DNA of 64,000 bases, taken from positions 192,001-256,000 of IMG/VR virus record IMGVR_UViG_3300021255_002539; one strand, written 5' to 3'. Position numbers and translations under genes: made by a program. Each line of letters starts with the position of its first letter. Positions within the stretch are counted from its first letter, which is position 1. Positions 5,429 through 56,644 of this stretch are shown in pieces. This DNA is from a virus. Taxonomy: Duplodnaviria; Caudoviricetes. The notes beneath the pieces are model-generated. The model did not search any database. It saw only the letters and a program-made list of their open reading frames with translations, and was not told the DNA's origin.

Positions 5429-6394
5429 TCACTTTCCATATCTAATGATGGAATCATCGTCAAAAGCATTATCTGAAATTTCTGGGTTTCCGAGGATTCT
5501 GACCTCTTTTAGTTTTTCGCAATCAGCAAATGCAAGAGTTCCAATGTATGTTACACTCTTTGGTACCGTCACGGATGTTAATTCAGGACAGCACTAAAAC
5601 ATCTAACTATGAATCCTTTCTATATTGTTAGATAGTTTAACATTCATTAAACTAGAACATCCAGCAAATTCGGCACATCCCATTTCCATTACACTATTTG
5701 GAATCTTTATGCTCGTAAGGCTACTGCAATCATGAAAAGTATAACCAATAAACTTAATTACACTATCTGGAATTACTACATTTTTCAAATTTTTGCATTT
5801 CTCAAACGCGCACAATCCTATCTCCTCGACCCCATAGGGAATAATCACTTTTTCAAGACTCTCGCAATATCTGAACGCCTCTTGCCCAATGCTTTTTACG
5901 CTGTCAGGAATAATTACTTTGGTGAGACTTTCACAAAGTGCAAATGTACCTTGTCTAATGTATTGTATTCCTGATGGAATCGTTATTTTTTTAAGGCTTT
6001 TGCAACAACAAAACGCCATCCTGCCAATATTTGATACATTGGGTGGTATTTCTACTTTGATGAGATTATTGCAGTCATAAAACGCATAATCTCCGATACT
6101 TTCCACCGAGTCTGGAATTACAACTTTGCTCAAACGGTAGCACTCGTAGAACGCTTTGTTACCAATGGATTTGACTCCGCTTGGAATTACAGCAATTCTT
6201 CTCTTTCCATTATATTTCACCAAAACACCATTGTCAATATCAAATTCACCATCAGACTCGTTAAACTTCAGTATTTTTCCCTTGTCCGTCTTGAACAGAT
6301 TTCCTGATTCGGAGACATATTCAAGCTTGCCGTACTTCTCCGTGAAGTATTGGCTTTTCTGAAAAGCCTCCTTCGTTATGTTCAATTTCTTCAT
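5429..6394 (-). CDS. BspA-type leucine-rich-repeat protein with N-terminal MKKLNITK leader (321 aa, 2 in-frame TAG)
   Basis: IPDSVxSIGxxAFxxCxxL repeats continue past TAGs at 5603 and 5594 (..VTVPKSVTYIGTLAFADCEKL..) to TGA at 5429. GAGG RBS. Confidence 0.85.
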
Positions 6395-11487: not shown

Positions 11488-12558
11488 ATGAAAGTGTCAG
11501 AGACAACGAAGAAGATATACGAAGGGATATCCAACATCCTCAAGGAGAATGGACAGCCCCTCACCAAGGCTCAGGTGTATGCCATCGAGAGCATGGTCGA
11601 GACGGTCGAGGATGCCACCGAGAAGAGGTGTTGCGAGGTCACTGAGGGCATCTTGAAGAAGAAGGACGCATTGATTGCCGAGGCCAACCAGAGGGTGGCC
11701 GCGTGCCAGGGCACTGTTTCTGAAGCCACCATGCAGAAGGTGAACGAGATGGTGGAGAGCAGGATAGCGCAGTTGAAGAAGGACATTCCACAAGTGCTGG
11801 ACTACGCGAAGATGAAGAAGCTCGAGTCCTGCATGGCTACAATCAAGGAATGCGTTGGATACAAGACCGACGAGCAGGTTGAGCGCGTGGCAAACGAGTC
11901 CGCCAAGATGCTCAAGTCCACCAAGTCCCTTATCGAGACACAGGCCAAGACGATTTCTGAGAAGGTTGCTTCGCTTGCTGAGAGTGCTTCGAAGATGAAG
12001 GCACTACAGGAACAGGTGAGGCAGATGAAGCAAACAATAGACGCAAAGGAAAAACAGATAGTCGAAAGCACGAAGACGAACACAGAGCTGGTCAATCAGA
12101 ACCAGAATCTGCAGAAGAAGATAGAGGAAAGCAAGAAGATAACCGAGAGCATAGAGGAAAAAAGAAAGGCAGAGGCATTGAGGTATTATTTGGAGGAAAA
12201 GATATCGAAGTACCCGAAGTACGAGGCAACTCTTCTCAGAAAGCATTTCCAGAACGCCAAGTCCAGGGCAGAGATAGACGAGAACTTCTCCAAGGCACTT
12301 TCGATGGTGCAGGAGAAGCGGGACACGATGAGGACGGTTCAGGCTATACCAGTGGCGAAGGTTCCAGCCACGCAGGTGAACGAGAACAATGGGACCGAAA
12401 AGCAGATTTCAGGTGAAACTATTGTCAAAGAAAGTGGTGGGGCAAACAAAGATGCTTCCCTCTCGATGTATGACGATGGCTTCGTTGAGGTTGAAGCAGA
12501 CTTCGACGAAGACCCAATCAGCAACGAGGAGATGCAGGCGTGGATGTCCCAACTTTGA
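11488..12558 (+). CDS. Prohead core/scaffold protein, T4 gp22-like
   Basis: Coiled-coil protein immediately upstream of the major capsid gene. Carries many x-x-E|S/A/G sites and a C-terminal ..MQAWMSQL helix like gp22. Confidence 0.7.
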   Translation: MKVSETTKKIYEGISNILKENGQPLTKAQVYAIESMVETVEDATEKRCCEVTEGILKKKDALIAEANQRVAACQGTVSEATMQKVNEMVESRIAQLKKDIPQVLDYAKMKKLESCMATIKECVGYKTDEQVERVANESAKMLKSTKSLIETQAKTISEKVASLAESASKMKALQEQVRQMKQTIDAKEKQIVESTKTNTELVNQNQNLQKKIEESKKITESIEEKRKAEALRYYLEEKISKYPKYEATLLRKHFQNAKSRAEIDENFSKALSMVQEKRDTMRTVQAIPVAKVPATQVNENNGTEKQISGETIVKESGGANKDASLSMYDDGFVEVEADFDEDPISNEEMQAWMSQL

Positions 12559-12599: not shown

Positions 12600-14198
12600 A
12601 TGTTCAAGACAAATTCAGAATACCAGAAGAGGTTGCTCAAGCGTTGGGCACCCGTCCTGGAGAAGGGCGCAGCGATCGACTCCGTCGAGAAGAAGCTCGT
12701 CCTGGCGCAGGTTCTCGAGAACACCCGCAAGGAGTTCACGAAGAAGAACCTGTTCACTGAGGCTGCCCCAACTGCAGTCCAGAACACGATAGACAACCGC
12801 GACCCAGCATATCAGGCTCCAATTCAGGGCAAGGGCGTTCTCACTCAGAACGACTACATCCTCCCCAATGTTGTGATGCCAATGCTCCGCCGTATCTTCC
12901 CAACCCTCATGGCTCACGAACTCGTTGGCGTCCAGGCAATGACTGGTCCTACGGGCTATGTGATGGCTCTCCGCGCGATTGCTGCCAACCCAGAGCGTGT
13001 TGGTTTGCCACAGGGCTATGAATTCGGCTATGGCGATCACGGCCGCACGAACCAGAGCGTCTTCACGGGCGACACCGCAGTGAACACGAATGTTCCTGTG
13101 GACTCCACGCAGTCCCTCCAGAACAAGCTCTATGGCGAGAATCCTGCCCTTGACGACATCGGCATGTTCATCAATGGCACTTCCTACTCCGGCCGTGGCG
13201 TTCCTACGGGCCGTGGCGAGGGCTATGCACATGGAACACCTGCGACATACAAGGGACTTGACGGCAAGGATTATCCTTACATGAATGGTGCAGCAGGATA
13301 TGCTGGTGGCTATGCTGGCGATCCCAACAGGGCACTTGACCCAACATTCGGTCACTGGAGGAACAACACCTATCCTCAGGCCACCATCAAGTTCGAGAAG
13401 CGTTTGGTCGCAGCTGAGACGCGCAAGCTCGGCTCCGAGTGGACGCCAGAGGACGCAGAGGACCTTGAGGCAATGCAGGGAATCGACATCGAGACCGAGA
13501 TGACGAACCTCATCTCCTATCAGCTCGGTGCCGAAATCGACCAGCAGATCAAGGAGTCCATGCTCTACGCTGCATGGGGTACCGCAAAGGTTCTCGATGT
13601 CTCCAAGCTCGATGGTTTGGACCAGATGGGTCGTATCGCAGCAATGCTCACAGTCGTGACGCGCGAGGCGAACGAGATCTCCATCAAGACCCGCCGTGGC
13701 GCAGGCAACTTCGTCCTCGCTTCGACGACGGTTTGCTCCTGCCTCCAGCAGCTCGGTACATCCAAGCTCGTGAGCGACGGCAAGACGATGCCTTCCGTCC
13801 CTGCCTCCAGCATTGGCGCAATGACCAAGGAAGGTCTCATCAACGATGGGCGTCAGCTCCTCGTCCGTGACACCAATACCTTCGGTTCCTACGCTCTCGT
13901 TGGCTACAAGGGAACGCAGGCTGGCGATGCGGGCATTATTTATTGTCCGTACATCCCGGTGACGTTGTATAAAGCAATTAAGCCTGAGAATGGTCTCTCG
14001 GTCATCGGTGCCCGTACGCGCTACGGTCTCGTCGACAACCCATTCGATGCTGACAACTACTACAGCCTTATCAAGTTCACAGGTTTTGACCGCGGGTATA
14101 CGCTTGGCAACTCTGAGCGCACCTTCTTCGGAACCGTCGAGGCTGCTGAGGCTTCCGACAGCACGAACTTCAACTTCCGCAGCGGCCTGGTTGGCTAA
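12600..14198 (+). CDS. gp23: Major capsid protein, T4 gp23-like (532 aa)
   Basis: KRWAPVLE, PMLRRIFPTLMAHELVGVQAMTGPTG, RKLGSEWTPEDAEDLEAMQGIDIE, GIIYCPYIP, RTRYGLVDNPF. Strongly biased (highly expressed) codon usage. Probable cleavage at LFTE|AAP. Confidence 0.95.
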   Translation: MFKTNSEYQKRLLKRWAPVLEKGAAIDSVEKKLVLAQVLENTRKEFTKKNLFTEAAPTAVQNTIDNRDPAYQAPIQGKGVLTQNDYILPNVVMPMLRRIFPTLMAHELVGVQAMTGPTGYVMALRAIAANPERVGLPQGYEFGYGDHGRTNQSVFTGDTAVNTNVPVDSTQSLQNKLYGENPALDDIGMFINGTSYSGRGVPTGRGEGYAHGTPATYKGLDGKDYPYMNGAAGYAGGYAGDPNRALDPTFGHWRNNTYPQATIKFEKRLVAAETRKLGSEWTPEDAEDLEAMQGIDIETEMTNLISYQLGAEIDQQIKESMLYAAWGTAKVLDVSKLDGLDQMGRIAAMLTVVTREANEISIKTRRGAGNFVLASTTVCSCLQQLGTSKLVSDGKTMPSVPASSIGAMTKEGLINDGRQLLVRDTNTFGSYALVGYKGTQAGDAGIIYCPYIPVTLYKAIKPENGLSVIGARTRYGLVDNPFDADNYYSLIKFTGFDRGYTLGNSERTFFGTVEAAEASDSTNFNFRSGLVG

Positions 14199-19153: not shown

Positions 19154-20161
19154 ATGAAAGACTACTACAAGATATTGGGCGTATCGAAGGACGCATCTGC
19201 AGACGAAATCAGGAAGAGTTTTCGCAAGTTGGCACTTCGCTACCATCCAGATCACCAACAGGGGAAGTCTGACGCCGAGAAGAAGGAGGCCGAGGACAAG
19301 TTCAAGGAAATCAACGAGGCATATGAAACCCTCTCTGATCCAGACAAGCGGCGGCAATACGACAACCCCTCTCCATTTGGTGGTTTTGGTGGCGGGGACT
19401 TTGGCGATGGTGCATCTCGGACATGGACATCCCCAGATGGCAGCGTGCATTTCGAGTTCAGTGGTGATCCACGGGCGATGGGTGGTGGATTTGGCTTTGG
19501 TGGCTTTGATCCCTTCATGGGTGGATTCGGACCATTTGGGCGCAGACGGGTCGATCCAAATGCACCCCGTCCTGGCGAGGATTCCATGTTCACATTGTCA
19601 GTTGGGTTCATGGAGGCCATAGAGGGGTGCAAGAAGAAGGTGAGGTTGGGAATAGAGGACAATTGTGGTTGCCTGAATGGCTGCGACAAGTGCAACCACA
19701 CTGGACGGGTACACAAGACCATAACATTGGAGGTCAAGGTGCCGAAGGGTTGTCCACCAGGTCAGAAGCTTCGGGTCGCAGGTCAGGGAAACCGCGGCTA
19801 CAATGGCGGCCCCAATGGTGACATCTACTTCGTCATAGACTCGCCAACCCAATACGATGGCTTCATCAGGGATGGGTTCGACTTGCTTGAGAAGATAGAC
19901 CTTCCGTTCGAGACCTTCATTCTGGGTGGAGACATCAATGTGAAGACCTTGGATGGTGAAGTCAAGTACAACATCAAGCCATTCACCAAGCTGGGCAAGA
20001 TTGAGGTCTTCAATGGCCAGGGCGTTCCTGTCATGAATTCCCTGAATGCAAAGGGTGACTTGAAGGTGCTTCTGAATCCAGTTCTCCCAGACTCCCTCAC
20101 AGAAGAGCAAAGGGAGAAATTGGAGGCATATCGGGATTCCTGTGCCAAGAATGGTAAATAA
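19154..20161 (+). CDS. dnaJ: DnaJ/Hsp40 co-chaperone with abbreviated zinc-finger region
   Basis: KDYYKILGV..YHPD J-domain, G/F-rich linker, CGCLNGCDKCNHTG, C-terminal GDIY/GDL motifs. Confidence 0.92.
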   Translation: MKDYYKILGVSKDASADEIRKSFRKLALRYHPDHQQGKSDAEKKEAEDKFKEINEAYETLSDPDKRRQYDNPSPFGGFGGGDFGDGASRTWTSPDGSVHFEFSGDPRAMGGGFGFGGFDPFMGGFGPFGRRRVDPNAPRPGEDSMFTLSVGFMEAIEGCKKKVRLGIEDNCGCLNGCDKCNHTGRVHKTITLEVKVPKGCPPGQKLRVAGQGNRGYNGGPNGDIYFVIDSPTQYDGFIRDGFDLLEKIDLPFETFILGGDINVKTLDGEVKYNIKPFTKLGKIEVFNGQGVPVMNSLNAKGDLKVLLNPVLPDSLTEEQREKLEAYRDSCAKNGK

Positions 20162-27984: not shown

Positions 27985-28689
27985 TCACATTTCGTCTTCT
28001 GGCAAGTCCTCGTAGTAATCCATGCCGTTTTCCAATGCGGCATTCTCCATATACTGCCAAAACTCGTCCTTGATTTGCTCTCCCTTCCAATCGTCGTCAA
28101 GAACCTCGTCCAAATTGGGGCCAAGGTACTTCGCTATTTCATCATCCCCCCAACCTGCGCTTGACAAGTAGTCGTAGATGTCATATGCAATTCTCTGCAT
28201 TGTCTTGTCGTCGAGTTGGCTTGCAGCCATTGGTTCGGGCAGTGATTCGTAGTCGTACCTCGTGATTGTCACGCCCTTGTAGGTGAATTCCTTTTCCATG
28301 TCATCAAAGGACTCCTTGAGCATTTTACCCTATACCATCTTGAAGTCAGCAACTTTATTGCCATTCTGACTTATGACAATGAATTCGTCGTCTTCAACCC
28401 AAATAGCTTTTCCGTTACATTTACGGGCAATGAAATTTCCATTTCGTTCAATCCACTGTTTACATGACTTCATGGAATTAAAAGTACGGATTTGGTCTTC
28501 ATTCCAATTTTCGCATGATGCAAGGCAGGTAATGTGTCCCATATCATTGGATTCCTTGAACATCAGCACTTTGCCTTTGTTGGTCTTGAATACCTTGCCA
28601 CTTTCTGACACGTATTCAAGTTTGCCGTATTTGCGCGTGAAGTAGTTGCTTTTTTCAAAAGCTTCCTTCGTTATTGGTAGTTTCTTCAT
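27985..28689 (-). CDS. Two-module protein with MKKLPITK leader (234 aa, 1 in-frame TAG)
   Basis: ORFs 28330-28821 and 27985-28323 are joined in frame across TAG 28330 (..KMV-Q-GKMLKES..). RBS GAGGAAACAAAAC-ATG. Confidence 0.75.
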
Positions 28690-38410: not shown

Positions 38411-38905
38411 ATGTTCGAGATAATGAACCCACTGGCCACATGGGACGATATGTGGCAAAACATGCTTGCCTTGACGGAGTATCCGTTCAACAATGGCAAG
38501 AACCTGATGAACACAGGGCTACGTAAACTGATTGGTCGGCCCCACAATTTGGTGAATGTCACCGACAAGGACGGCAACATCATCGAGCAAAGGCTGGAGG
38601 TTGTCACGACGCCATTCAAGAAGGAGGATGTGGATGTCCAGGTTTCTGGCAACACATTGACCGTAAAGTGTGGCTCCGAACAAGAAGAACTCCAGGAAGC
38701 ACCCGAAGATGGGAAGGATAAGCCTGTTGAGAAGTACCTGTACAAGGGCATTTCCGAGCAGTACTACACCTTCTCCCTCAAGTTGTCGGACAAGATTGAC
38801 AAGACCGCAATCAAGGCAAAGAACCAAGATGGCGTCTTGACAATCACCCTTCCATACAAGAAGGAGACCAAGTCTGGCGACATCGCCAAGATAACTGTGG
38901 AGTAA
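38411..38905 (+). CDS. Small heat-shock protein (Hsp20/alpha-crystallin)
   Basis: FKKEDVDVQVSGNTLTV..YLYKGIS..AKNQDGVLTITLP. AGGAGG RBS. Confidence 0.88.
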   Translation: MFEIMNPLATWDDMWQNMLALTEYPFNNGKNLMNTGLRKLIGRPHNLVNVTDKDGNIIEQRLEVVTTPFKKEDVDVQVSGNTLTVKCGSEQEELQEAPEDGKDKPVEKYLYKGISEQYYTFSLKLSDKIDKTAIKAKNQDGVLTITLPYKKETKSGDIAKITVE

Positions 38906-41863: not shown

Positions 41864-41912
41864 TGCTGTTTCATGTAAATACTTCTATACAGCCCAAATG
41901 AGGTATAGCAAC

Positions 41913-43229
41913 ATGAAAAGGAATAGACTTTACAAGGAATCTTCAGAAACCCCCGAATTCGTGAATTCGGACAGACTACGCAAGGAAATCAAGGAAGTGC
42001 TGGAGGAGGAGACTTCTGGCTGGGACGGGACGGACGATGATTCCGTGCAGTACATGAAGGATTCTGCGCCAGACTTCATAGACGAGTATGTGGAGGATGT
42101 TGTTGACGATGCTGTGAAGAGCTTCAACGAACTGGTGCATAGGAACGACACCTCTATGTGGGGCAACTTCAAGGACATCAGATACAACTGGGAGGGCTTC
42201 CACAATGAACTTCCACATGGCTGCACTTTGAAGGAAGTTGTTAAGATGATTGATGCTGGCGAGGACAACGAGATTACCAGGGAGTTCAAGAACTGGGCAG
42301 TTGACTGGTATTTCGAGGCATTTGGCACATATAACTTGAAGTACAAGTGGTCGGAATTCATGGGCGAGGTTGCTGCCGACCATGAATACCAGCAGGAAAG
42401 GGATGCTGAGGATGAGGGCGAATACAATGAGTCCTGCAGAAAGATTCATGACAAAAGAAAGGTCGTGAAGGAGAGCTACGAGGTCTCTGATGATCTTGCA
42501 GATAGGTTGAACTCAATTCTGGCAGACGAGTTTCTTGCGGCGGAATTTTACAAGCTTGCTGAGCTTGCGATGAAGGGCAACAAGCAACACAGGCTGTCTG
42601 AGATTGCTGACGAGAATGGCGAGGACGAACTTGAGGATCACTTCAAGAACCTTTCTGAGTGGATGCAGTCCAAGGGAATCAGGGTTGTCACGAACCACGA
42701 CGAGATGCTTGACATCACCAATGGCAGTGTATTTACTGTGGAGGATGGGGATTCCACTTCTGACATCGTTGACAAGTTGATTCAGTCTGAGGAAGAGGCT
42801 ATTGAGGCATACGAAAACCTGATTCCTGACACTGACTTGGATTTGCGCGTCATGCTTTGTGGTTTCTTGAAGGACGAGCGGGAGCATCTAAAGGCATTGA
42901 CTGACGCAAAGGACGAGATGGGTGGTGGCAGCAGGTACGATGGCGAGGACAAGCCAAAGCACACCATATACGAGGGTGGACGAATGTCAAGGCATGAAGT
43001 TGAGCCAAACTACGAGGTATACAAGGCAGTTGACATTCAATGGGATGTTGACGATGAAGAGGATTTGGATGAACTTCCGACAGAAATGGAGGTTGAAGTT
43101 CCAAGGGATGTCATACGCGATGGCGAGGAAGCTGTGGAGGAATATGTTTCAGATGCAATTACTGATGAAACTGGATTCTGCCACAATGGCTTCTACTTGA
43201 GGGAGTTTTCCAAGCCTGTGAGGAGATGA
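41913..43229 (+). CDS. Multi-module protein with MKRNRLYKES leader and central ferritin-like domain (438 aa)
   Basis: LADEFLAAEFY..DELEDH..SEEEAIEAY..DEREH di-iron four-helix-bundle pattern at about 42474-42920. Late promoter at 41875. Confidence 0.75.
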   Translation: MKRNRLYKESSETPEFVNSDRLRKEIKEVLEEETSGWDGTDDDSVQYMKDSAPDFIDEYVEDVVDDAVKSFNELVHRNDTSMWGNFKDIRYNWEGFHNELPHGCTLKEVVKMIDAGEDNEITREFKNWAVDWYFEAFGTYNLKYKWSEFMGEVAADHEYQQERDAEDEGEYNESCRKIHDKRKVVKESYEVSDDLADRLNSILADEFLAAEFYKLAELAMKGNKQHRLSEIADENGEDELEDHFKNLSEWMQSKGIRVVTNHDEMLDITNGSVFTVEDGDSTSDIVDKLIQSEEEAIEAYENLIPDTDLDLRVMLCGFLKDEREHLKALTDAKDEMGGGSRYDGEDKPKHTIYEGGRMSRHEVEPNYEVYKAVDIQWDVDDEEDLDELPTEMEVEVPRDVIRDGEEAVEEYVSDAITDETGFCHNGFYLREFSKPVRR

Positions 43230-43358
43230 TATGCCAAGATTGGGTGATTCAATGGAGGATTTCTGAAGGTTTTTTGTAAATAATGATTGAACATTCGATG
43301 TGAGAGGACTAGTCCATAAGATTGTTCAAAAACAAACTACTCTATAGAGGAAACTACA

Positions 43359-44387
43359 ATGAAGAAACTAAACATTACGAAGAAGCAGTACGACGAGAGC
43401 AAGTACTTCACGAAGAAGTATGGTGCCATCAAGTTCGTATCTGAATCTGGCAAGCACTTCAAGACCGACAAGGGTGTTGTCCTGGCTCTGGAGGGCACTG
43501 AGGAACCAATGAAGGAAGATGGCGACAGCATCATGGACCGCCAGCTGGACGACAACCAGGAAGCTGACAAGAAGGAGGGTGGCGACAACGAGGGTGACAT
43601 CACCCGCGGCGAACTCACTGACATGCTCAAGGATGTCGTGAAGGAAGTCGAGAAGGTTTGCGACGAGCAGGACATTTCCTTTGAGGATGTTGCTGGCATC
43701 GAGAAGCCCGAGGGTGAGTCCGACGAGGAAGCCGACAAGGACGAGGTGGTTGCCACCAAGGACGAGGTTGCAGAGGTTCTCGCTGGGGTCATTGACACGG
43801 TCGAGAAGGTTGCTGACCAGAACGACATCGAACTCCCTGAGGAGGACGAGGAAGCCGATGGTGAGGATGGTGATGGTGATGCTGGCGATGAGAAGAAGGA
43901 CGATGGCGAAGATGAAGTCACCGTCGACGAGGGTTGCGACTGTGGCAAGAAGGATTGCCCAGAGTGTAATCCAGACAAGAAGCCAGCCACCGAGGGTTGT
44001 GAGGATGGCAAGTGCTGCCCAACTTGTGGTGCTCCAATGAAGAAGGAGTGTGGTCCCGCATGCGAGTGTGGCGACAACAAGCCTGACAAGTTCATGGAGG
44101 CCCGCAAGTCCCGTAGGGCGAAGCTTGTCCGTGAGGCAATCCGTCGTCGCCGTGCTCAGAAGGTGCGCGAGAGCATCGCCCGTCGGGCCAAGGTCCGCAA
44201 GGTTCTTGAGAGCATCCGCAAGCGTCGGCTCGCCAAGAAGGTGATGGAGAGCATTCGCCGTCGCCGTGCGATGAAGAAGGTGATGGAATCCCGCAAGGCC
44301 CGTGTTCTCGCAGCACGCAAGGACCGCAAGGTGATGGAGTCCGTCCGCGCCCGCCGTGCGGCCCGCATGCGCCGTCTGGCCAAGTAA
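43359..44387 (+). CDS. Putative abundant head-core protein: MKKLNITK leader, acidic repeats, Cys clusters, Arg-rich C-terminal repeats
   Basis: 342 aa. Codon bias like the MCP (CGC/CGT, GCT, AAG). Late promoter at 43276. Confidence 0.75.
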   Translation: MKKLNITKKQYDESKYFTKKYGAIKFVSESGKHFKTDKGVVLALEGTEEPMKEDGDSIMDRQLDDNQEADKKEGGDNEGDITRGELTDMLKDVVKEVEKVCDEQDISFEDVAGIEKPEGESDEEADKDEVVATKDEVAEVLAGVIDTVEKVADQNDIELPEEDEEADGEDGDGDAGDEKKDDGEDEVTVDEGCDCGKKDCPECNPDKKPATEGCEDGKCCPTCGAPMKKECGPACECGDNKPDKFMEARKSRRAKLVREAIRRRRAQKVRESIARRAKVRKVLESIRKRRLAKKVMESIRRRRAMKKVMESRKARVLAARKDRKVMESVRARRAARMRRLAK

Positions 44388-44416
44388 TCCGACATATAGT
44401 TTCGGGTAAACATAAC

Positions 44417-44450
44417 GGGGCATCTTTTGATGCCTCGTTTTGCTTTTGGT
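44417..44450 (+). terminator. Probable terminator
   Basis: GGGGCATC-TTTT-GATGCCTC followed by a T-rich tract. Confidence 0.6.
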
Positions 44451-44519: not shown

Positions 44520-47500
44520 ATGAACACATCATTGACAAGACCACAGTCCCTTTAGGAACTATACAAGACATACTTCGCCTTTGCGAACAAGTTTCAGTTC
44601 ACTGCCCTTCTGAGGAACTACATTCAGAACGAGGAATGGAAGGACAAGAGCCAGGAGAGGGTATGGTCGTTGATTTCGAGGATATCGGACGATCTTGGGG
44701 CAGTCTTCACGGACGACATCGTGAACTATACGCGCAATGTCGTGGATGTGAACACCTGCAAGGTTCCTCAGTTCCTGGAGCAGTGCAAGATGTTGTCCTA
44801 CAATCTGGAGCACATCAAGAACTCGTATGGGTTCTTCCCCAAGCAGATACAGTGCCTGGTGGACTTGTTCTCTGTGAACCCAGAGTATCTGATTGGCAAC
44901 TCCAGCAACCACATCCTCTCTGACCAGGTAATCAAGGAGATATTGGTGTACATCAAGGATAATGCCACATCTACTGTGACATTCACGAACCAGGATGTTG
45001 TGGACAGGCTGATTGACGATCCGCATGGACTGGTCGATGGCGACAACTACTACAACTTCGTCGTGTCGCTTTTCTACACTACATTGGTGGAGGCGTTGTC
45101 GGCGAAGTACTCAGACGAGGATGGTCAGCCAATCGTGTTCAACTTGTTGTGGTGGGAGATGTAGAACAGGGACATCATACTGGACAACTTGAAGGGCTAC
45201 AAGTCCTGGGTGGACAGGTACATCTCCAACGAGATTGAGCATCCCCTGAACGACCAAGGTCTACAGAACACGATATGGAGCACGGTCCAGGCGGTCAAGA
45301 ATCAGAAGAAGATGTCCCCAAGGTTCAACCCATTCAAGTTGGCAGACGAAATCTACTTCAATGGCTTGAACCCCACCAACAAGCTGACTTAGGACGAATT
45401 GGATCTCATTGGGACTGTGCTTGACTACCACGCGAGGACGAAGTACAACTATCAGGAGTAGTAGTTCTCGGACGACCAAAGCACGCAATTCGCCTACTAC
45501 CGAGAGCTTGAGTTTTGTGGATATGTGAAGATGGTGATGTTCGTCCTGAACAACTTGAACAGCTTTGACTTGTCCAACTTGTCCTACGATGTCCCCACCA
45601 ACAAGTTCATACAATATGGCACGGACGATTGCCTGAAGGTGGCTTAGATATTCAACGATGGTGAGGGGCATTTGGTGCAGATGCCAAATGGGGATGTCGC
45701 CTTGAACCACAAGGATGTCGTGTTGAGGGTGGCGAAGTTCCTGGCAAACTATGTCTTCCACATACAGCATCTGAGGGAGAACGCGAAGACGATTGCCTGC
45801 AAGCATGCGATGAGGGGTACTGCTGGGTTGCTCGCGCATGTTGTGAACGACTATCTGGTGAAGGAATTGCCATCTGTGAGGGACAACTTGCTTCAGGGCT
45901 CTGATGTGGACATTCGGTTCCAATGGGAGATTCAGCCAGACAAGTTCCTCAACTATGGCAATGTGAAGGTATTGGAGTACATGGACGACAACGAGTACTT
46001 CAACATAGACCCAATAGAGGATGTGAGGTTCACCGAGAGGACGAACGCGAGGTATTGGGAGAAGTTGTCGGAGATTGGCTATGACGAGTCTCTTGGCGCA
46101 TTGACGAAGCGCGAGATACACGACCTATACGCCAATGTACTTGGAATTGGGAAGCTTCAGCCAGACAGGGAGAGTTCGTTTGACGATGTTCAGGACTTCC
46201 TGGTGGACTTGTTCAAGATTGGCGCGAACCCAGTGAAGTGGGACTTCGGTGATGGGGACTTCATGAATCCAATAGACTACGATCCATTGAGGGATGCGGT
46301 CTACGATGTCGAGGGCAAGTATGGCTACACAAAGGCCGAGAGGATGAAGGTTCAGACCAACACGGGGCTGAGGAAGAACCAGGAGGCGCAGTTCCTGGAG
46401 TATAGTGGTCAGAATCTGGAGGACGATGCCATACAGGGCATATACGACTACATGAACAACCAGTTGTTCTATTGGAAGAACACCGACTACTCGTCCCATG
46501 TCCTGCACCCGTTCATGTACAACCTCAAGTTGTGGAACCGCCTGGACAACATCATAGTCAACGGCTATAGGGACTACATCAACAACGACCTGGTGAAGCA
46601 CATGTCCTCCAAGGTGAAGTTCGACGAGTTGGTTGGGGAGTTTGGCGAGTGCAGAAGGTTCTGGAAGTACAATGTGGTGGACATGACAGGCTACACCACC
46701 AGATACGAGGCTGCCGTGAAGGACGAACACAAGGACGACGCCAACAAGACGACGAGCCAATTGACTGGGTACGATGGGTTGTTCTACCCAGACGCAGCAT
46801 TGGAGTTCCTTCGGATATACGCAGACGAGAGGTCAACATCGACAGGAGAGAGGTTCCAGATTCCAACTTGGTTCTTCGTCAACCCACAGGATCTTCTGGA
46901 TTCGCAGAAGACCGAATTGTTGGAATACTTCAAGTCCCACGCATTCATCAGAGCGATACACTCAATCTACTGGCAATTGTCTGGTGGGGTGCCCAATTTC
47001 GCGGAGTATGCGGTGAGCCGATTCTACCTTGATTGGTACTCGCACCTCAACTACACGAGGGCTGAGTATCAGAAGATTGCTATGCAGTTGTGGTATTGGC
47101 GGGACAGGGTCAAGGAGCTGATTCAGACCGAGTACCCAATCAAGAAGTACTGTCTGGACATCCAAGGCAACTCCCTGTTGTTGGTATCCACATTCGGTCC
47201 GGACGAGGTGGATTCGAACAGATTTCTGATAGACCTGCAAATCGAGCAGAACAGGGTGCAGACAGAGGCGAATGGCAACTTGAACATCCATGTGCCATTC
47301 TGCGAGGACAAGCTCGTGCAGCCCAGTGAGATGTGGGTGAGGTGGAAGTCAAACCCAATCGCTTTCCCAGCATTCGACATAGAGTGGAACCAGAAGACTG
47401 GCGACCAGCAATTCGACTTGAACTTCAGAAAGGACGACGACAACACCGAGATGGGGCAGTTGACCCACGCCAACAACGACTGCAACGACGACTTCCATGT

Positions 47501-50500
47501 GGTGATTGAGGACTGGCTGGCGAAGTATGGGGACAAGATCAATTGGGAGAGGGGTGGCTCAAACAGGCTGCCGGTGTTCTTCGACATGGAGCAATCTGCG
47601 AATGTGTTGGCGTTGGCGTCCTGGCACACATTCCAGAGGAAGGTGGATGGGGTGGCCGAACTGGACGAACTCGGAAACCCAATGTACGAGACCCTTTGTG
47701 GAAAGAACCCGCTTCACATATTCTCGGTGGAGAGGACAAGCACATCCACATTGGAGTACAATTGGACGAAGTACATCCAGTCAAACGACAAGATCTTCGC
47801 AGAGGATTACCTCAAGGGAATGCTTTTCGACGCATACCACTATTGCCCCGCGAATGGAACGCTTATGGTGCCACTCTACAGATTCACCTGTTCAGATTCA
47901 GATGACTAGGGGGACATCCACGGGCAGAAGGTGGATATCAACATGTGGTTCATTCCTGCGCAAATACTCAAAGACGACAGGTTCGTGGCGCAAAGGCGGA
48001 TATTCATGGATCGACCATCCAACTCTCCCTTGGACTTGAACCAGCTTCTGGATGCTGGGTAGAACGCAAGCAGGTTCCTGTTCGATCACCCAGTGAAGGT
48101 GTGCAGGAACACCAACCTCGTTTTCTCGCCATATGAGGACCAGAATGGGATGAACAAGGTGAAGTGCGCGTTCCTGGGCGTGTATATGGACAAGACGCCA
48201 GATCTGAAGAAGGACAACCACAACATCAAGTCGATATCCTTCAATACTGGCAATGGAGCCACCAGATACGAATACGACTCGCAATCTCCACTTGACCTTG
48301 GGTTGGTGAAGAACGGGTACTACATGCAGAACGACATCGCTGACATATACGAAGGTACTGATCCAGACTGCTGGCCAGATGGCGATTTCAGAAAGCGCAG
48401 GTACATCGACCAGGGGATATCGAGGGAATGCTTCAACTCATACGACTCCAACGACAAGTATGTGTTCGTCTTGGAATTTCAGCAATCTGTGGACAACGCC
48501 ATTCTGTTCAACAACTCCAGTGACCTCCCGATGGCATATGCCTACAACATACTGTCGGATGCTGGCTACATCCCCCACTTCGCGTACCAATCCCTCGTGA
48601 AGTACAAGGGCGATGTCGATGGAACAGCATATACATGGGAGAGCAAGTACTTGTCTGGCAAGGATCACCTTCAGTTCGAGTTGCTGGGTCTGGACGACAA
48701 GCAGATTCCATTGGCCTACGAGAACATGGAGAGGATGATCGTTGAGGACACCACAGACGATTGCCGCACCATAGTGAACCCAGCCAAGTTGATGGAGGAC
48801 ATCTACCGAGTGTGGTGCGAGACCAAGGGAGTGAAGTAGAACCCAGAGGACCAGTACGAGTCCTACTTCGAGAACGAGTACAAGGGATACGACAACCCAG
48901 AACTGGAGTTTGACGACGACAACGAGGCTGTTTGGGACGACACCGAGGACTTTGAGCTGACATTGCCATAGTTGAACGACCCATACGCATACGACAATCC
49001 AGATGTGTTCAGAAGGTTGCTTGACGAGTACTACATCACAGTGGTCCGGACAGACAATGGGGAGTTGGCGAACGAGAGGAAGTACATTCTGCCCCCAACC
49101 AGCATATCCGAACTTCTGTTCAACAACGACGCCTCCACCAACGATGGCTATGTGAGGTGTTCTGGGTTGGTGGAATACGCAGATCCAACGGTTCAGGACA
49201 ACCACTATGTCCCAGAGCAAGTCGTGTTCACGGGCACCCAAAACCCCTTCGCCTACGACCAGGAGGGCAATCGGGTGTACTCCAAGTCAGAACTGCTCCA
49301 ATATGGCAATGGCATTAGGGGCGTGGACGACATCTATGTTGGATTCGACATCAGAACTGAGGATGGCGAGGAACCAATTCGGGACAAGCAAGGCAACATA
49401 GTGTCCGAAGAAGAGGTAGTGGCGGGGCGGATAGTGGTGAATGTGCATACCAGACCGGTTCAACACAAGTTCATCAGACCAATCGTCAAGTTCAAGAAGT
49501 CCCTTAGACCATTGGATGCCAAGAACCCAAGCTTGGTTGACAGGTTGCACAACGAGCAGAACATTATACCTGCTGGCTCAATTAGGGTGATACTCTCGCA
49601 CAGAAACATGGACAACCTGGCGAAGTACCACATCCTCAACACATCGTCCAACCTCTACTTCAATGGCTCCTTGCCAAAGAATGGATTGAACCAGTTCAAG
49701 TACTCAGACTTCAAGTTCTCCAAGACCGTGCATCTTGAGCAAACCGATGATGGGTGGAAGTCCACGGAGAATGACGCCAAGGGCAATCCAGTACTGGAAT
49801 TCACCAACGAACAGATTTCTGGCCAGATTCCACCATATTCGGTTTCCATCAACAAGGGCAAGGTTGCTGAATTGTGGTATCTTGAACAAGATGGCATTCA
49901 AGGCGATGGCGAACATCAAATAGAACCAGGAAGAAGGGGATTTGACCACTTCCAGGAGAATGGACCAACCTATCCAATCCCAGATGTTGGTGGATTCAAG
50001 TGGGCGCATCTGGCGAAGGAAGTGCCACTCAGATACCTCGACTACCTCTATATCAAGCGCGGAAGGCTGTCCTTCAAGATAAGCGAGGAATCCGAGTCCT
50101 TCACAGACTTGATGTCCAGGCTGCCATCCTTCCACATAGACGATGAATTGAGGAACAAGATGGCGGATTTGAACGATGTGCAGATCCTCAAGGACTACTC
50201 CACATTCGTCCACCAAAGCGAGAACCCAGAGGTTGTCCGAGCATGCGGCAGCTTCAATCCACTGTTGGTGAACTCGATTGTGCGTCCTGGCGTGAAGTAG
50301 ATGGAGACCCATAGGTATCTGCTCAAGGAGAATCAGAGTTCAGATGGCATCTTCCAATTGGACGAGAATGGACACCCAATCGAGATAGGCGACGATGGCA
50401 AACCACTTAGGTACGACGAAGATGGCAATGTACTCAATCCACTGCCAATCGAGGTGATTTGCGCCAACGAAGGAGGTGAGCCGAACACCATGATTGAACT

Positions 50501-51728
50501 CAGCACAGGGAATACAGCAATCCCCCTCATGCTCCAGTTCGAGGATGGAGAGCTTGACGACTACCTCAAGATATACGCCAACTATGTCAGGGTTCAGGAC
50601 AAGCACGGGGACTTCCACTACGATCTCTACTTCAACATCCAGAACCTGTTCAACTCCCCATTCGAGTACATATCCACCGTGACGAAGCAACCCAATGTGC
50701 TGGTCATCCCAGACTCCTACCTCTACTTGACTGGCGACAAGTACACCGACCAAGGAGACCACAACGAGGTTGACGCCGACAAGATGAAGGTCATCAAGGA
50801 TGGTGGGGAGCTGTCCATATATGGGCAGGTCAAGACATATTCTGATTGCTTGCTCTCTGACGCCAAGACAATCAAGATGTTCACATACAGGATATACAAC
50901 ATCTCTGACGACAAGCCCAAGTTCCTCATCCAGAAGACCTTTGACATCACCAAGTCCTCCCTCAGGAACAATATTGAGAGGAAGGTGGAGGTGAAGTTCT
51001 CGGATGTGCTGTGGACGATTGACGAGAACCAGTTTGAGTTTGCAGATGCCAACCTCAAGGACGATTTCAGAATACTGAACCAGGATGTTGTCGTTGTCCA
51101 ACCAATCCACATCAACTGCCATTGGGACAAGGACGACGACTCCAGGGTACGGACGCTATCCTTCGACATCATGCACGACACCATAGACTTCGCCAATGTC
51201 CCTGCGCTGGGTCCATATTGGATGCAGGCCAGGACATTGAACTGCGAGGTGATGTAGACAGAGGATGTTGGCGACAAGGTGTTCAAGAAGCCCTACTACG
51301 ACCATTGGTCTGACTCGAACATGAGGTTGGTTGTTGACGAGAACACTGGAATCCCCAGGCTCACATTGACCTTCAACGACGATGCTGACTTCAACTTCGA
51401 GACCATATACCTGAAGTGGGTTCTGCCAAAGGGCTGCAGGATAATGGACAGCATCGACAGAATGGGTGGGTATGTGTTCAGTTCCACGCCTATGAACATA
51501 GTCGCCGACTGTGGAAATGCTGCCGTCGTTCCCCAGATTGAGACTTCCACTGGACACATAGTGGCTCGGGTCAAGAGACCAGACAGAATGTACCTCGGGC
51601 TGGAACATTCCTCCACCCAGAGGATGAATGGGTATGTCATATCGAACTTGGCAGAGGAAATTCACAAGGCATTGGTGAGGGGCGAGAGGAACCCAACACT
51701 TGAAGGAACAGACAGAAATGGAGGTTGA
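44520..51728 (+). CDS. Giant virion structural protein (2402 aa, 12 in-frame TAG); possibly baseplate wedge gp7-like
   Basis: ORFs 44670-45164, 45189-45392, 45672-47909, 48093-48839, 48972-50300, 50301-51257 and 51279-51728 all share one frame. The gaps contain only TAG (44553, 45162, 45390, 45459, 45462, 45645, 47907, 48060, 48837, 48969, 50298, 51255). LRENAKTIACKHAMRGT resembles the KGT motif of gp7/P2-gpI wedge proteins (weak). Late promoter at 44481. Confidence 0.75.
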
Positions 51729-52420
51729 TGCAAATGGCTGACATGGAACTATTGAACAAGTCGATGATCAAGAAGTACAAGCTCGACGACACCATACTTG
51801 AGTCGTACTTCAAGGACGAGAAGAACCACAATGTCTCTGGCATGACATTCCCATTGAGGATTGACAACAGACAATATTGCTCCCCAACTGACTATCAGGG
51901 GTCGAAGCCATCGTGTTGTGGGTACTCCACCGCACAGATACTCGAATCCCTCAATTGGATACGGACTGGGAAGATTGTGCAGATGGATGCCGACCAAATC
52001 TACGCAAAGTGCAAGGAAGTGGACAAGCAGATGGGTCAAGGCGGCACATACCCCGACCTGGCGATGGCAAAGGGACTTGAATTGGCGAAGGGGATGAAGA
52101 GCAAGTACGAGGTGAAGACATCCACAAAACGGGAGATTGACATCCTGAAGAGGGCAATCCACCAGAACATGTTCGTCTCTGTGAACATGATCGTGACAAA
52201 GGACATATACGACCTGGATGGGAACAACTTCGTCTACCAGGGCAATGGGGCGAAGGCTGGTGGACATTCCCTCGTCTGCTGTGGATACGACGACCCCTCC
52301 CAAATGGTGATTCTGCAGAACCATTGGGGCGTGGATTGGGGGTTGAAGGGCTTTTTCCTCTGCCCATATGACGTTTGGAAAAAGCAGTGCAACATCTTTT
52401 GTTGGTACGAGAGAATTTGA
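51728..52420 (+). CDS. Papain-like (C1) cysteine peptidase
   Basis: YQGSKPSCCGY (Gln/Cys), GGHSLVCCGYDD (His), LQNHWGVDWGLKGF (Asn). TGATG overlap with the giant gene. Confidence 0.85.
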   Translation: MQMADMELLNKSMIKKYKLDDTILESYFKDEKNHNVSGMTFPLRIDNRQYCSPTDYQGSKPSCCGYSTAQILESLNWIRTGKIVQMDADQIYAKCKEVDKQMGQGGTYPDLAMAKGLELAKGMKSKYEVKTSTKREIDILKRAIHQNMFVSVNMIVTKDIYDLDGNNFVYQGNGAKAGGHSLVCCGYDDPSQMVILQNHWGVDWGLKGFFLCPYDVWKKQCNIFCWYERI

Positions 52421-52477: not shown

Positions 52478-55400
52478 ATGAGAATCGTAATTGACAAGGA
52501 CATACCTGAAATCCAACTCCTGCAGGAATCCTGGGAGAAAAGCAAGCCAACCTACAAGGTAGTTGCTGTAAACGAATGCGACAGGTTCGTATATGCCAAG
52601 GACTTGAAGAAGATTGACGAAGCCACTGATTCTGCGTTGGACATGGCGTGGGACAAGACATTCGATGATTGTTCGGCGCAAATTGTTGAGACAAAGAATG
52701 GGAAGGATGCCACAATATGGTCTTCTGATGGGAAGCTTGTTGTTTCCGAGGGGGTCTTTGGGGACCTGGTCAGGGGGCTGTCTTCTGGAATGCAAAAGGC
52801 GTTGAATGGATTGAGCAAGGCGTTCAAGAAGGTCAAGGATGGAATAGCCAAATTGGGCAATGAGGTTCTGAATGGTCTTCGTGGGGCAGACTACATCAAC
52901 AAGAACAACGACATGACTGGTGTTGGCTACAAGGCGATGACCAAGCAGATGACAGTTGACGAGAACGAAGTCAAGAACTTGAAGGAGTATTGGAAGGTTT
53001 TGTGTACTGGGGTGAAGCAAGTAGTTGACCAGACGAAGCAATACCAACCAGTGGATGTCAAGAACATAAGTGGCGTGATAATGAACAGCGACAAGGATCC
53101 AATCCAACTCAAGGTCGATGTTGTCACTGCCGAGGGAGGGGAATCCCAATCCCTTTTGTTGACGCAGAATGGAGATGCGAAGCCCGAGGCTGGAGAAGGC
53201 AAAGATGATGGAGACGACGCTGCAGGAAATGGCGATGGTGCTGGAAATCCTGGTGGAGCGAAGCCCCTTGCTGGTGTGACACCTGAGCAAGCCAGGAAAG
53301 CCGCGACGGACAACCCCGAGCAGGTTGTGCCAACCCTCGCCCAACAAGTCACCCAGAACACCCAGGACATAGCTGGATTGAAGGAGAAGATGGCAAAGGT
53401 CGCAGAATCCACTCAGAGCTGGAACTTCAACAACGAGGTTCAGACCAACAAGGCTGGTCTTGAGCGTCTGGCAATCAAGCGGTTCTTCAACGAGATGAAC
53501 GACCCAGCAGTGAAGGAAATCAAGTTCGTTTCTGAATCTGGTCAGGTGAGGACATACTACACCAATTCTGGATCCTCGGCATATGCTGCGTTCAAGAAGG
53601 ACTTCAGGGAATCCACGGCGAAGTGCGAGAAGGCCGCCAACTTGGTTGGCTACAAGGTGACATTTGAGTCCGCAAACTCCAGAAGCCACTTGAATGGCTA
53701 CAAGTTCTCGGACTTCGGAATGGACGACGACTTCGATTCCACTTCCAAGACAATCGTCATCAAGGAGAGCGTCACTAGGGTATCTCCTAACGGAGATAAT
53801 AGCAAGGAGACATCTACTACCAAGAAGGAAGAGGTGGTGAAGGAATCGACAGACGATGTTGATGCCAGATTCTCGACAACCACGGTTGACGCGAAGACAC
53901 CATCTGCGAACCCAGAACCAAGTGGTTTCACGCTTGAAGTTGGGGAGTTGAACCCCGAGGACGAAGTGAAGTCCCTGTTGGCTTCCATGAACAAGTACGA
54001 TGTTGTCAAGCCAACCGACATCCAGGATGGTTCAATCTCAGATGGGGTGACGACATATCCAGATGCTGAGGTTGTTCAGGAGGCAGAAGGAGACGAGGAA
54101 GGTGGTGGTGACGACGCAGGAGGAGATGATGCTGGAGGAGAGGACGCCGATCCATTTGCTGATGGTGGAGGAGGAGACGACGCGGGTGGGGACGCAGACC
54201 CATTCGCAGGCGATGCGGGTGGCGATGACGCTGGTGGAGATGCTGGTGGAGGAGAAGATGCCGACCCATTCGCTGATGGAACAGGAGATGACGCTGGCGG
54301 CGATGCTGGTGGAGCCACAGGTGGGGATGCAGGTGGTGGAGACGCCCCTGCCGATGCTGGTGAAGGCGATGTAGCATCAGACCCCAATTCCCCAGAGGGA
54401 GAACCTGCCCCAGAATCCCCTGTGAACACAGACGCCCAGGGTGAGCCAAAGTCTCAGTACAACATCAATGTCACTGAGCCATTCAACGTCAACGACGACT
54501 TCTCCCTGAACGAGGAAGAGCAGAAGGAGTTCTTCGGCAAGATTGACCAGTTGGTGAAGATTCCCGACATGGACAACTACTCCCTTTACCTCTATCAGAT
54601 TACTCCAGAGAACATGAACCTCGATGATGTCCACTACATCCAGGCACTCTACGAGCTGTCTGTGAAGTTGGGCTTGCTTGAGGATGTCTATGCCGATTCC
54701 AACTTGCTTGAGAAGTACAACTCCTACAAGTACTCCGTTGTGAAGGATGGTGAGAACAAGGATGGCGAGGACTTCAAGGTTCAGGAGCAGAAGAACCCAA
54801 TTTGGGGCAACAAGGTGATGCTTGAAGAAGCCAAGGATAACAACAAGAAGCCCCGTGGCATCTCAAAGGTCCAGGACGACAATGAGGACAAGAACAAGTG
54901 GGTGAAGGACAACTCGAAGGAGGATCTTGAGAACAAGAAGCAGGACGACAGAAGGGGTCCGAAGTGGACGAAGCTCGACAAGGACCAGAACGGCGCCGAC
55001 AAGCCCATCGTCATAGACGCAGCAAAGGAGGCATGGGATTCTGTCAATGGAAAGAAGGATGGCAAGGATGACAAGGAAGACGCCGACAAGAAGCTCCTGG
55101 ATGGAACTTCCGAGGGTCAGTTCCACGGACTTGGTTGGTTGGTGACATTCAAGGCAATGCAGTTCGGCTCCCCCAGATACCTCACCCTCTACATCAAGAG
55201 GAATGGTAACGACAAGGCCGAGAAGCAATGCGAGGACTACCTCAAGAGACTGTCGTACACCGAGATTGAGTTCGTGAACATAGACGAGGTTGACCCCTAC
55301 GAGTATGTATACAGGTCTTGCTCTGGAATGAAGACCCCCGAGCAGGTTAGGACAGAGAAGTACGCGAACGAGGCAGTCCCAGTGACATACCTCGAAAGCA

Positions 55401-56140
55401 CCGACAAGAAGGTGACTGTTGGGGACTTCATCTACACCCCAGCCGACACTTTTGGTGGAAATGGATGGAACACAGTGCTTGCGCAGGTAGTGGAGGTCGA
55501 TGGGGACAAGTTCACAGCCAAGGCCGTAGATTCCACTGGAAATAAGTCATGGCAACTTGAGGTTGTTGGAAAGATGAAGGAGATGCGCGGCAATTCCACA
55601 TATGGCAAGACAACTGAAGCAGAGTTCAGGGAACTGAAGAACAGCGAGTTGGCAAGGGAAAGCGCCGAGACGAAGGTTCCTGAGTCAATCCCAGGGGACA
55701 TCAAGCGCGACATCAAGCGCGTCATCACAAAGCTGAATGCTGAAATCAGGGGAACCAAGCAGTTCAACTTCCTCAAGGAGTGTGGGGTGGAGAAGCCACA
55801 GATCGACCACCTTCAGTTCCTCGCAGGATACAAGACTGCGCAGGTGAACGAGACATTGAGCGAGACGACCTACAAGTTCATCTTCAAGAAGGACGATTCG
55901 ACCTTCTCGCGGATGTTCTACTCCAACCTCAAGGAGAAGTTGTTCAAGTACCTGGGGAGCTTCGCCCAAAAGTTCAACCTGGAATGTGGCTGCGAAGTGA
56001 AGCCAACCATGATTTGCATCGACTTCATGAGGAGCGATCTTGGCAACCCAACCTACGACCTGGACACGATGATTGTCGAACCAGATAAGCCAGAAGTCCC
56101 AACATTGGATCAGGCGATGGAGATTGCGAAAGACATGTAA
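52478..56140 (+). CDS. Large acidic multi-module protein with GGDDAGG low-complexity tract (putative internal head protein, 1220 aa)
   Basis: Late promoter at 52431. Many x-x-E|S/A/G sites. Internal IKFVSESG motif shared with the MKKLNITK leader. Confidence 0.7.
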   Translation: MRIVIDKDIPEIQLLQESWEKSKPTYKVVAVNECDRFVYAKDLKKIDEATDSALDMAWDKTFDDCSAQIVETKNGKDATIWSSDGKLVVSEGVFGDLVRGLSSGMQKALNGLSKAFKKVKDGIAKLGNEVLNGLRGADYINKNNDMTGVGYKAMTKQMTVDENEVKNLKEYWKVLCTGVKQVVDQTKQYQPVDVKNISGVIMNSDKDPIQLKVDVVTAEGGESQSLLLTQNGDAKPEAGEGKDDGDDAAGNGDGAGNPGGAKPLAGVTPEQARKAATDNPEQVVPTLAQQVTQNTQDIAGLKEKMAKVAESTQSWNFNNEVQTNKAGLERLAIKRFFNEMNDPAVKEIKFVSESGQVRTYYTNSGSSAYAAFKKDFRESTAKCEKAANLVGYKVTFESANSRSHLNGYKFSDFGMDDDFDSTSKTIVIKESVTRVSPNGDNSKETSTTKKEEVVKESTDDVDARFSTTTVDAKTPSANPEPSGFTLEVGELNPEDEVKSLLASMNKYDVVKPTDIQDGSISDGVTTYPDAEVVQEAEGDEEGGGDDAGGDDAGGEDADPFADGGGGDDAGGDADPFAGDAGGDDAGGDAGGGEDADPFADGTGDDAGGDAGGATGGDAGGGDAPADAGEGDVASDPNSPEGEPAPESPVNTDAQGEPKSQYNINVTEPFNVNDDFSLNEEEQKEFFGKIDQLVKIPDMDNYSLYLYQITPENMNLDDVHYIQALYELSVKLGLLEDVYADSNLLEKYNSYKYSVVKDGENKDGEDFKVQEQKNPIWGNKVMLEEAKDNNKKPRGISKVQDDNEDKNKWVKDNSKEDLENKKQDDRRGPKWTKLDKDQNGADKPIVIDAAKEAWDSVNGKKDGKDDKEDADKKLLDGTSEGQFHGLGWLVTFKAMQFGSPRYLTLYIKRNGNDKAEKQCEDYLKRLSYTEIEFVNIDEVDPYEYVYRSCSGMKTPEQVRTEKYANEAVPVTYLESTDKKVTVGDFIYTPADTFGGNGWNTVLAQVVEVDGDKFTAKAVDSTGNKSWQLEVVGKMKEMRGNSTYGKTTEAEFRELKNSELARESAETKVPESIPGDIKRDIKRVITKLNAEIRGTKQFNFLKECGVEKPQIDHLQFLAGYKTAQVNETLSETTYKFIFKKDDSTFSRMFYSNLKEKLFKYLGSFAQKFNLECGCEVKPTMICIDFMRSDLGNPTYDLDTMIVEPDKPEVPTLDQAMEIAKDM
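54085..54375 (+). repeat. Low-complexity coding repeats GGDDAGG / ADPFAD(G)
   Basis: Seen directly in the translation of 52478-56140. Confidence 0.85.
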
Positions 56141-56158: not shown

Positions 56159-56644
56159 ATGAAGAAACTAAACATAACGAAGGAACAGTTCGAAAAGTCC
56201 AATTACTTCAAGAACAAGTATGGCAATCTTGAATATGTGTCGGAGAGCGGCAAAGTATTCAAGACGAACAAAGGCAAAATGCTGATGTTCAAGGAAGATT
56301 CATAGGGATTGCGTAGCGATGAAAAGAAGAAATGGACATGGTGGGGAAGTTCCGACGATGCCACTTATAATGATGCCCCCAGTTCTGATTATGAACAAGG
56401 CGATATAGATTGGTGTCCTGAAGGAGGATGGGAAGATAGAGAGGATGCGTGGTATTCAATGTTGGCAGTAGTTACAGATATAATTAGCCAAGAGACTACT
56501 GGTGTTGATTTACGGAACGATGTCTATGATGATGTCAAATAGGGTCATAGGTCAGCGGAGCTCGACATAGATCATGATGCTGGAACAGTTGAAGCCAATA
56601 TAAATGGCGACCACTATGAATGGTGGCTTGCGGAAGAACGATGA
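56159..56644 (+). CDS. Acidic Trp-rich protein with MKKLNITK leader (161 aa, 2 in-frame TAG)
   Basis: ATG 56159 after GAGGAAACAAAAC. TAG at 56303 and 56540. Ends TGA 56642-56644. Only partly present in the ORF track. Confidence 0.8.

Follow-up and report, generated by a model that had tools for sequence, protein, structure and literature searches.

The T4 prohead protease gp21 cleaves after L/I-x-E and is blocked by Asp at P1 (PMC9026906); gp21 is itself cut at its C-terminus and possibly at its N-terminus. This S77 enzyme cuts gp22 and gp67 ('precursor to internal peptides') after (L/I)-x-Glu into small charged peptides, and mature heads retain 139 gp67 fragments of 3.9 kDa and 115 gp22 fragments of 2.5 kDa (PMC9026906 Table 1). 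Beyond F-L-I-E, gp67 ends in an acidic piece of 3,993 Da, which matches the retained 3.9-kDa fragment, so the retained peptide is probably acidic. Another gp21 substrate, gp68, is a non-essential core component with an acidic N-half (-14) and an Arg/Lys-rich C-half (+23), and is present at 0 copies in mature heads (PMC9026906 Table 1). The internal proteins IPI-III and Alt carry a conserved N-terminal leader on diverse cargo, the capsid-targeting sequence of 10-20 aa, which is removed at Glu; they lose only terminal propeptides, remain folded and are retained among the DNA. Lysines of internal proteins contact phosphates and, together with polyamines, balance the phosphates of T4 DNA, which was proposed to speed packaging; internal proteins hold the lesser share of phage DNA charge balance (PMC3012670). 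A survey of positively charged capsid domains set motor-packaged phages apart as lacking them; host polyamines and metal ions are thought to serve these phages instead (PMC7096446).

Head and ejection proteins of phages phiKZ and SPN3US likewise have long propeptides with several Glu sites and N-termini shared among cargo, with Ser preferred at P1' (PMC10052503). Their motif differs (A/S-x-Glu), their multi-site parts are N-terminal and interpreted as waste, and no polycation arrays were reported for them in the literature examined. Adenovirus pVII and pre-mu, in an unrelated realm, are basic DNA-binding core precursors that are cut by a viral maturation protease and whose peptides remain in virions (PMC4246237). 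The protease and motif are different, however, there is no tandem array of equivalent peptides, and cutting takes place on packaged DNA, where uncut precursors condense DNA more strongly than cut forms and cleavage loosens the core (PMC4246237).

Here we analysed a gene in a 64,000-nt window that covers bases 192001-256000 of a phage genome. This genome is complete, has terminal repeats and comprises 414,060 bp at 48% GC. Judged by its sequence, the product is predicted to work like a T4 core or internal-peptide precursor but showed no homology to gp67, gp68 or any library family. The gp67 family (PF17634) had no match in the genome, homology to gp68 was found neither by Pfam PF10849, phrog_1049, direct search nor hhalign, and the protein matched nothing in Pfam, PHROG, NCBIfam, PDB sequence, GenBank phages, BFVD fold or ESM Atlas searches. 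In layout gp68 comes closest, but it has 141 aa and is encoded beside the portal and protease genes, whereas here those genes lie >100 kb away. The retained T4 peptides are probably acidic and come one per precursor, whereas 4-8 similar polycations are predicted per precursor here; the leader, of ~45 aa, is unrelated in sequence to the T4 capsid-targeting sequence, and the precursor is predicted to be diced where T4 internal proteins stay folded. An earlier note on this DNA knew of no analogue in tailed phages, which has to be qualified, since T4 gp22, gp67, gp68 and the internal proteins are partial precedents (PMC9026906, PMC3012670), and its analogy with adenovirus pVII/mu points in the opposite direction. 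A tandem polycation precursor in a tailed phage was not found in the literature covered, mostly non-subscription papers.

The precursor gene and its basic tail

The gene is a stand-alone late gene, with the following features (window positions; arrows mark predicted cuts):

43275..43284, + strand: late-promoter-like box TGTAAATAAT, 82 nt 5' of the ATG
43288..43328, + strand: conserved 5' leader hairpin, with the invariant palindromic octamer GACTAGTC (43307-43314) on top
43340..43351, + strand: invariant palindrome CTCTATAGAG over the Shine-Dalgarno GAGGA, also unique in the genome
43359..44387, + strand: precursor gene, 342 aa, ATG to TAA, no internal TAG, net charge -7
43359..43493, + strand: leader cassette, 45 aa, net +6, capsid-targeting-like, internal V-S-E↓S at residue 29
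43494..43934, + strand: acidic body, residues 46-192, net -46, with two helices, D/E runs and few cut motifs
43935..44099, + strand: Cys-rich linker, residues 193-247, 11 Cys (3-14 in homologues)
44100..44384, + strand: seven basic units, total net +36, each bounded by hydrophobic-x-E↓S/A
44100-44135, 44136-44171, 44172-44210, 44211-44249, 44250-44288, 44289-44339 and 44340-44384, + strand: the single units
44414..44439, + strand: intrinsic terminator, a hairpin plus T-run 3' of the gene in all homologous loci

The late box (GTAAATA in sense, within 130 nt) precedes 91 of 452 genes, including those for scaffold/capsid, portal, protease and baseplate wedge, and lies 82-90 nt upstream in 7/7 homologous loci with enough upstream DNA; box, ribosome site and terminator are all kept in homologous loci. 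The octamer GACTAGTC is invariant in 9 loci and occurs once in the genome. Each copy of the 5' leader folds as a hairpin (z -0.5 to -2.5), and RNAalifold on a MAFFT alignment did not recover it; hairpin and palindrome together (43288-43351) possibly serve translational control or mRNA stabilisation. The gene lies 3' of the DNA polymerase and a ferritin-like gene, a position kept across the clade with the regulatory signals. A 351-aa antisense ORF (43368-44423) was rejected as a codon-bias shadow, homologues having up to 9 stops in antisense frames.

The leader, two acidic helices (residues 83-103 and 134-154 in the AlphaFold2 model) and three Cys clusters described earlier are all present, and the Cys-rich linker may bind metal. 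The reading of the tail as seven Glu-bounded, Arg-rich peptides of 12-17 aa also held, although its start had been placed at 44094: the F-M-E motif is at 44091 and the first peptide begins at 44100. Predicted cuts after E247, E259, E271, E284, E297, E310 and E327 would give peptides of 12, 12, 13, 13, 13, 17 and 15 aa (1.5-2.0 kDa), with a net side-chain charge of +4 to +7 each. All seven tail Glu lie in [ILVMF]-x-E↓[SA], which shuffled tails contain 0.38 times on average and at most 5 times (200,000 shuffles). No stretch of the proteome is more basic than the 95-aa tail, and nowhere else in the six frames of the genome does a basic-unit repeat of this kind occur. Its composition is 31% Arg and 15% Lys, with clusters of 3-4 Arg. 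True protamines are 50-70% Arg, and by that measure (~50% Arg or more) 'protamine-like' was an overstatement.

Recent DNA duplication was rejected as the cause of the pattern, since the units are only 31-82% identical in DNA, no tandem repeat was detected, and the P1' Ser is coded by both TCN and AGC. AlphaFold2 modelled the tail as one continuous helix of 98 residues (244-341; pLDDT ~90). A coiled coil was rejected as well, because at a 13-residue spacing neither a heptad nor a hendecad stripe arises (the power at 98-102 degrees is about half of the mean).

Clustered at 90%, the related proteins number 162; the contigs that carry them come from gut and rumen and reach 434 kb. With Ala allowed at P3, the motif is present at 84% of 791 tail Glu in 113 distinct tails, compared with 8% when shuffled, and 572 of the 680 tail Ser stand directly after a Glu. 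As the earlier note had anticipated, the E↓S spacing is conserved: it is 13 in 413 of 549 units, 490 of which have a net charge of +4 or +5. As a consensus the units read S-I-R-R-R-R-A-A-K-K-V-M/L-E, Arg being paired at positions 4-5 (77% and 89% Arg) and Lys favoured at 10. The number of units per homologue ranges from 2 to 8. A fixed unit length, charge and Arg pair with a variable unit number fits a precursor of equivalent products.

To limit redundancy, 32 representatives (<70% identity) were compared. The motif occurs at 172 of their 202 tail Glu (10.4 expected). Asp is almost absent from the tails (2, to 202 Glu), but Asp and Glu are equally common in the acidic half (884 each). That half is depleted in motifs (8 vs 18.9 expected), while control acidic windows elsewhere in the genome are not (12 vs 11.9 expected); cut sites are thus avoided in the acid half, and the protein would not simply be chopped throughout. 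The precursors are near neutral (median net charge -10), and acidic and basic charge track each other weakly (rho 0.37, p 0.035, not tree-corrected), a correlation not significant with other domain boundaries (p 0.11).

A tail-only profile search returned only members of the precursor family among the 120 matches listed, and two degenerate DNA patterns for E-S/Arg arrays gave 10 matches in IMG/VR, all unrelated; both searches are weak negatives. In five homologues (P0034, P0040, P0050, P0059 and P0101) an extra module is inserted that combines an amphipathic helix with a small beta domain. It begins after D-E↓S, in many cases with E↓S at its far end, and other proteins with the leader have a helix resembling this one. 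This suggests that such modules may be swappable, protease-bounded cassettes.

Head protease, leader and expression

The phage is a T4-like jumbo phage of an uncultured gut/rumen clade. Its genome encodes a T4-type portal, an S77 prohead protease and a gp23-like capsid protein; relatives are contigs of 400-434 kb from rumen and gut samples, and among GenBank phages the best matches to the capsid protein in cultured phages reach at most ~31% identity. Assignment to the Jug phages was rejected, since those have 27-30% GC and code 11 (PMC12880540), against 48% GC and code 15 here. TAG encodes Gln: in the protease it stands in place of a Gln of relatives, and reading it so raises the coding density from 0.849 to 0.909. 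The 298 in-frame TAG are spread over 100 genes genome-wide, with none in the capsid, scaffold or precursor genes.

The protease (genome 349588-350325; PF03420, E 1.6e-12, over the cut-off; 245 aa with TAG as Gln) retains the catalytic His, Ser and Asp motifs, and in four genomes L/I/V-x-E↓S sites flank it at either end. Two further head genes lie in the window:

11488..12558, + strand: gp22-like scaffold, identified by its position 5' of the capsid gene, net -4
12600..14198, + strand: gp23-like major capsid protein (phrog_138, E 1e-70)

In a blind ranking of 452 proteins by the motif, the top three were the precursor, the scaffold and the gp21-type protease. The tail Glu do share their context with the scaffold, but not 'throughout' that gene as first claimed: 8 of 46 scaffold Glu lie in the motif (1.85 expected; reached by none of 2000 shuffles). 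These sites are largely conserved, and eight of nine relatives show the enrichment as well. At the end of the capsid propeptide stands L-F-T-E↓A, which does not vary among 7 relatives. Site density in the precursor tail is 1 per 13 aa, threefold the 1 per 44 of the scaffold, and with a motif every ~13 residues the basic tail is probably cut up within the head to yield small polycations. The comparative evidence supports well the predicted cutting by a gp21-type prohead protease, and we are fairly confident that the precursor is loaded into the head and cut by it.

The 45-aa leader is common to eight other genes of this genome, one of them split, and two complete genomes of relatives have 6 and 9 copies; elsewhere it heads hundreds of unrelated cargo proteins. 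In this genome, the other copies are:

5429..6394, - strand: leader plus BspA-type leucine-rich-repeat cargo, TAG read as Gln
27985..28689, - strand: leader plus unrelated 234-aa cargo, TAG read as Gln
56159..56644, + strand: leader plus unrelated 161-aa cargo, two TAG read as Gln
genome 518, 97174, 100326, 176046 and 177539: further copies, the one near 97174 split

The leader ends nearly always in Phe with Glu two or three residues on, mostly E↓S (F-x-E-S in most cargo proteins elsewhere); in the precursor family it ends A/S/T-L-E↓S/G/A, a variant that departs from the hydrophobic P3 rule. As with a T4-type internal protein, the gene is late and its leader is common to unrelated cargo and ends at a protease site. 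Among the 91 late-box genes, 14 have hydrophobic-x-E↓S/T in their first 16 residues, compared with 10 of 361 others (sixfold, p 2.5e-5). Even if the tail were diced only for removal, the 45-aa loading tag and the protease rule, which the precursor family defines for an entire uncultured clade, mark hundreds of unknown proteins as likely head cargo.

The leader and its upstream ribosome site travel as a DNA cassette; among the cargo are a BspA-type repeat protein, a CPxC zinc ribbon and acidic domains. A second, short leader, M-K-W-x-x-hydrophobic-x-E↓S, is found on late genes and is nearer in length to the T4 capsid-targeting sequence:

window 20188, 21864, 23161 and 41898; genome 15680, 95935, 169481 and 184351: short-leader genes

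In its likeness to the codon use of the capsid gene, the precursor gene ranks 2 of 353 genes, which bears out the match seen in the earlier note, while the scaffold ranks 59 and the protease 81. It keeps rank 2-3 without Arg, without Arg/Lys/Glu/Asp, or with residues weighted equally. Of its Arg codons 28/31 are CGT or CGC, as are 23/26 in the capsid gene, against 21% genome-wide. With codon bias as a proxy, high abundance is well supported by comparative evidence, and the precursor is apparently made at about the level of the capsid protein.

Proposed mechanism and competing explanations

We propose that the precursor is synthesised late from its own promoter at about the capsid-protein level, as promoter box and codon bias suggest, and that its leader would load it into the prohead core in the manner of the T4 capsid-targeting sequence. 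The acidic body would mask the basic tail, and the near-neutral precursor would then neither aggregate nor stick to cellular DNA or RNA. Before DNA entry, the gp21-type protease would in all likelihood remove the leader and cut at the seven tail Glu, a step that we infer strongly, leaving the acidic/Cys body mostly whole. If this cleavage takes place, we lean slightly towards a further step, in which the large acidic piece, trapped in the shell, would hold the 1.5-2 kDa polycations electrostatically until incoming DNA takes them over. The peptides would then be mobile counter-ions of +4 to +5, equivalents of spermine, that ease packing repulsion and are weak enough for ejection.

A built-in acidic counter-charge is plausible, given near-neutral precursors, an acid half in which cut sites are avoided and a scaffold that is not acidic; at net -4, against -28 for T4 gp22, the scaffold offers no acidic partner that would need the tail. 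Since uncut adenovirus precursors are the stronger condensers, the more likely effect of dicing would be to replace a strong condenser by counter-ions that are weak and mobile. In terms of charge, screening could be no more than partial: 1000 copies amount to 4.3% of the 828,000 phosphates and 5000 copies to 22%. Any counter-ions retained might therefore screen a few per cent to ~20% of the phosphates, short of protamine-style condensation; to retention of the peptides as counter-ions we give not quite an even chance. Tail-packed sites, a fixed Arg layout, a free unit number, capsid-like abundance, a near-neutral precursor and a non-acidic scaffold are together fitted best by a polycation precursor with an acidic carrier. 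The complete scheme, a capsid-addressed polyprotein with an acidic chaperone that is diced to Arg-rich 13-mers retained in the head, screening a 400-kb genome, is put forward tentatively, and so is the suggestion that such 13-mers could be a gene-coded substitute for polyamines, of a kind that the literature covered does not report for motor-packaged phages. If it holds, a tandem precursor of defined polycations would offer a clean genetic handle on how charge screening affects packaging force and ejection in very large heads, and on the role of T4 gp67/gp68-type core proteins.

The main rival, though an unlikely one, is a disposable, gp68-like core protein. Its basic tail would act intact while the prohead assembles, with nucleic acid or an acidic body (its own or that of a neighbour) as binding partner, and dicing would serve no purpose but exit from the shell; any retained product would then be the acidic, Cys-rich body. 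T4 lends this some weight, in that gp68 with its acidic and basic halves is absent from mature heads and the gp67 piece that is retained is acidic. Heads of this type cleave before packaging and most fragments leave, the gp22 2.5-kDa and gp67 3.9-kDa fragments being retained at only ~20% and ~40%, and redundant propeptide sites in T4, phiKZ and SPN3US have been interpreted as clearance aids. The alignment of helix 136-163 with gp67 by hhalign (probability 12% over 28 columns) is not significant. With no gp67 or gp68 detectable in the genome, the precursor gene may fill both roles. Removal alone, however, does not readily account for cut sites three times as dense as in the scaffold, for an inner unit layout that is fixed and prefers Arg over Lys, or for a codon rank of 2 against 59 for the scaffold. 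The basic tail of T4 gp68 has no hydrophobic-x-Glu site, and the scaffold of this phage is not acidic.

An improbable alternative is that the peptides are retained and act after injection, travelling with the DNA and shielding it from host nucleases, helping it across the envelope or inhibiting a host target, as T4 internal proteins may suggest. The leader of the precursor is common to variable cargo genes; in T4, IPI and Alt leave the head by ejection to act inside the host, and amphipathic peptides that are short and rich in Arg often target membranes or ribosomes. Cargo for anti-defence tends, however, to be patchy and to change fast, whereas the place and signals of the precursor gene are kept across the clade; nothing points to a host target, and such action is compatible with a counter-ion function. 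That the tail stays uncut, as one long charged helix that binds DNA or RNA or is structural, with the E-S motif a helix-repeat feature, is very unlikely: AlphaFold2 does predict a continuous helix at 244-341 and helices prefer Glu to Asp, but the 13-residue spacing lacks a heptad or hendecad stripe, Ser stands almost exclusively after Glu, the same motif recurs at scaffold, protease, capsid propeptide and leader ends, and the T4 scaffold is likewise helical, yet cut.

Neighbouring genes

Upstream of the precursor gene, the gene for a Ferritin/Dps-like protein (window 41898-43229) is preceded by a separate late box, and the protein carries L-Y-K-E↓S at its N-terminus. Its ferritin domain starts after V-V-K-E↓S, and in relatives the gene begins just ahead of that motif; the two genes adjoin in L001, L003 and L038. 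Because of the late box, the E↓S motifs and the kept neighbourhood, the ferritin-like protein may also be head cargo. Farther downstream, a 1220-aa late protein (window 52478-56140) has 10 hydrophobic-x-E↓S/A sites and long Gly/Asp-rich repeats; it had no family match and is a candidate head polyprotein. On the 3' side of the precursor gene (window 44520-51728), six apparent ORFs merge into one 2402-aa protein with 12 TAG. Other genes in the window encode a papain-family peptidase (51734-52420), an Hsp20 (38411-38905) and a DnaJ-like protein recognised by its N-terminal HPD motif (19154-20161).
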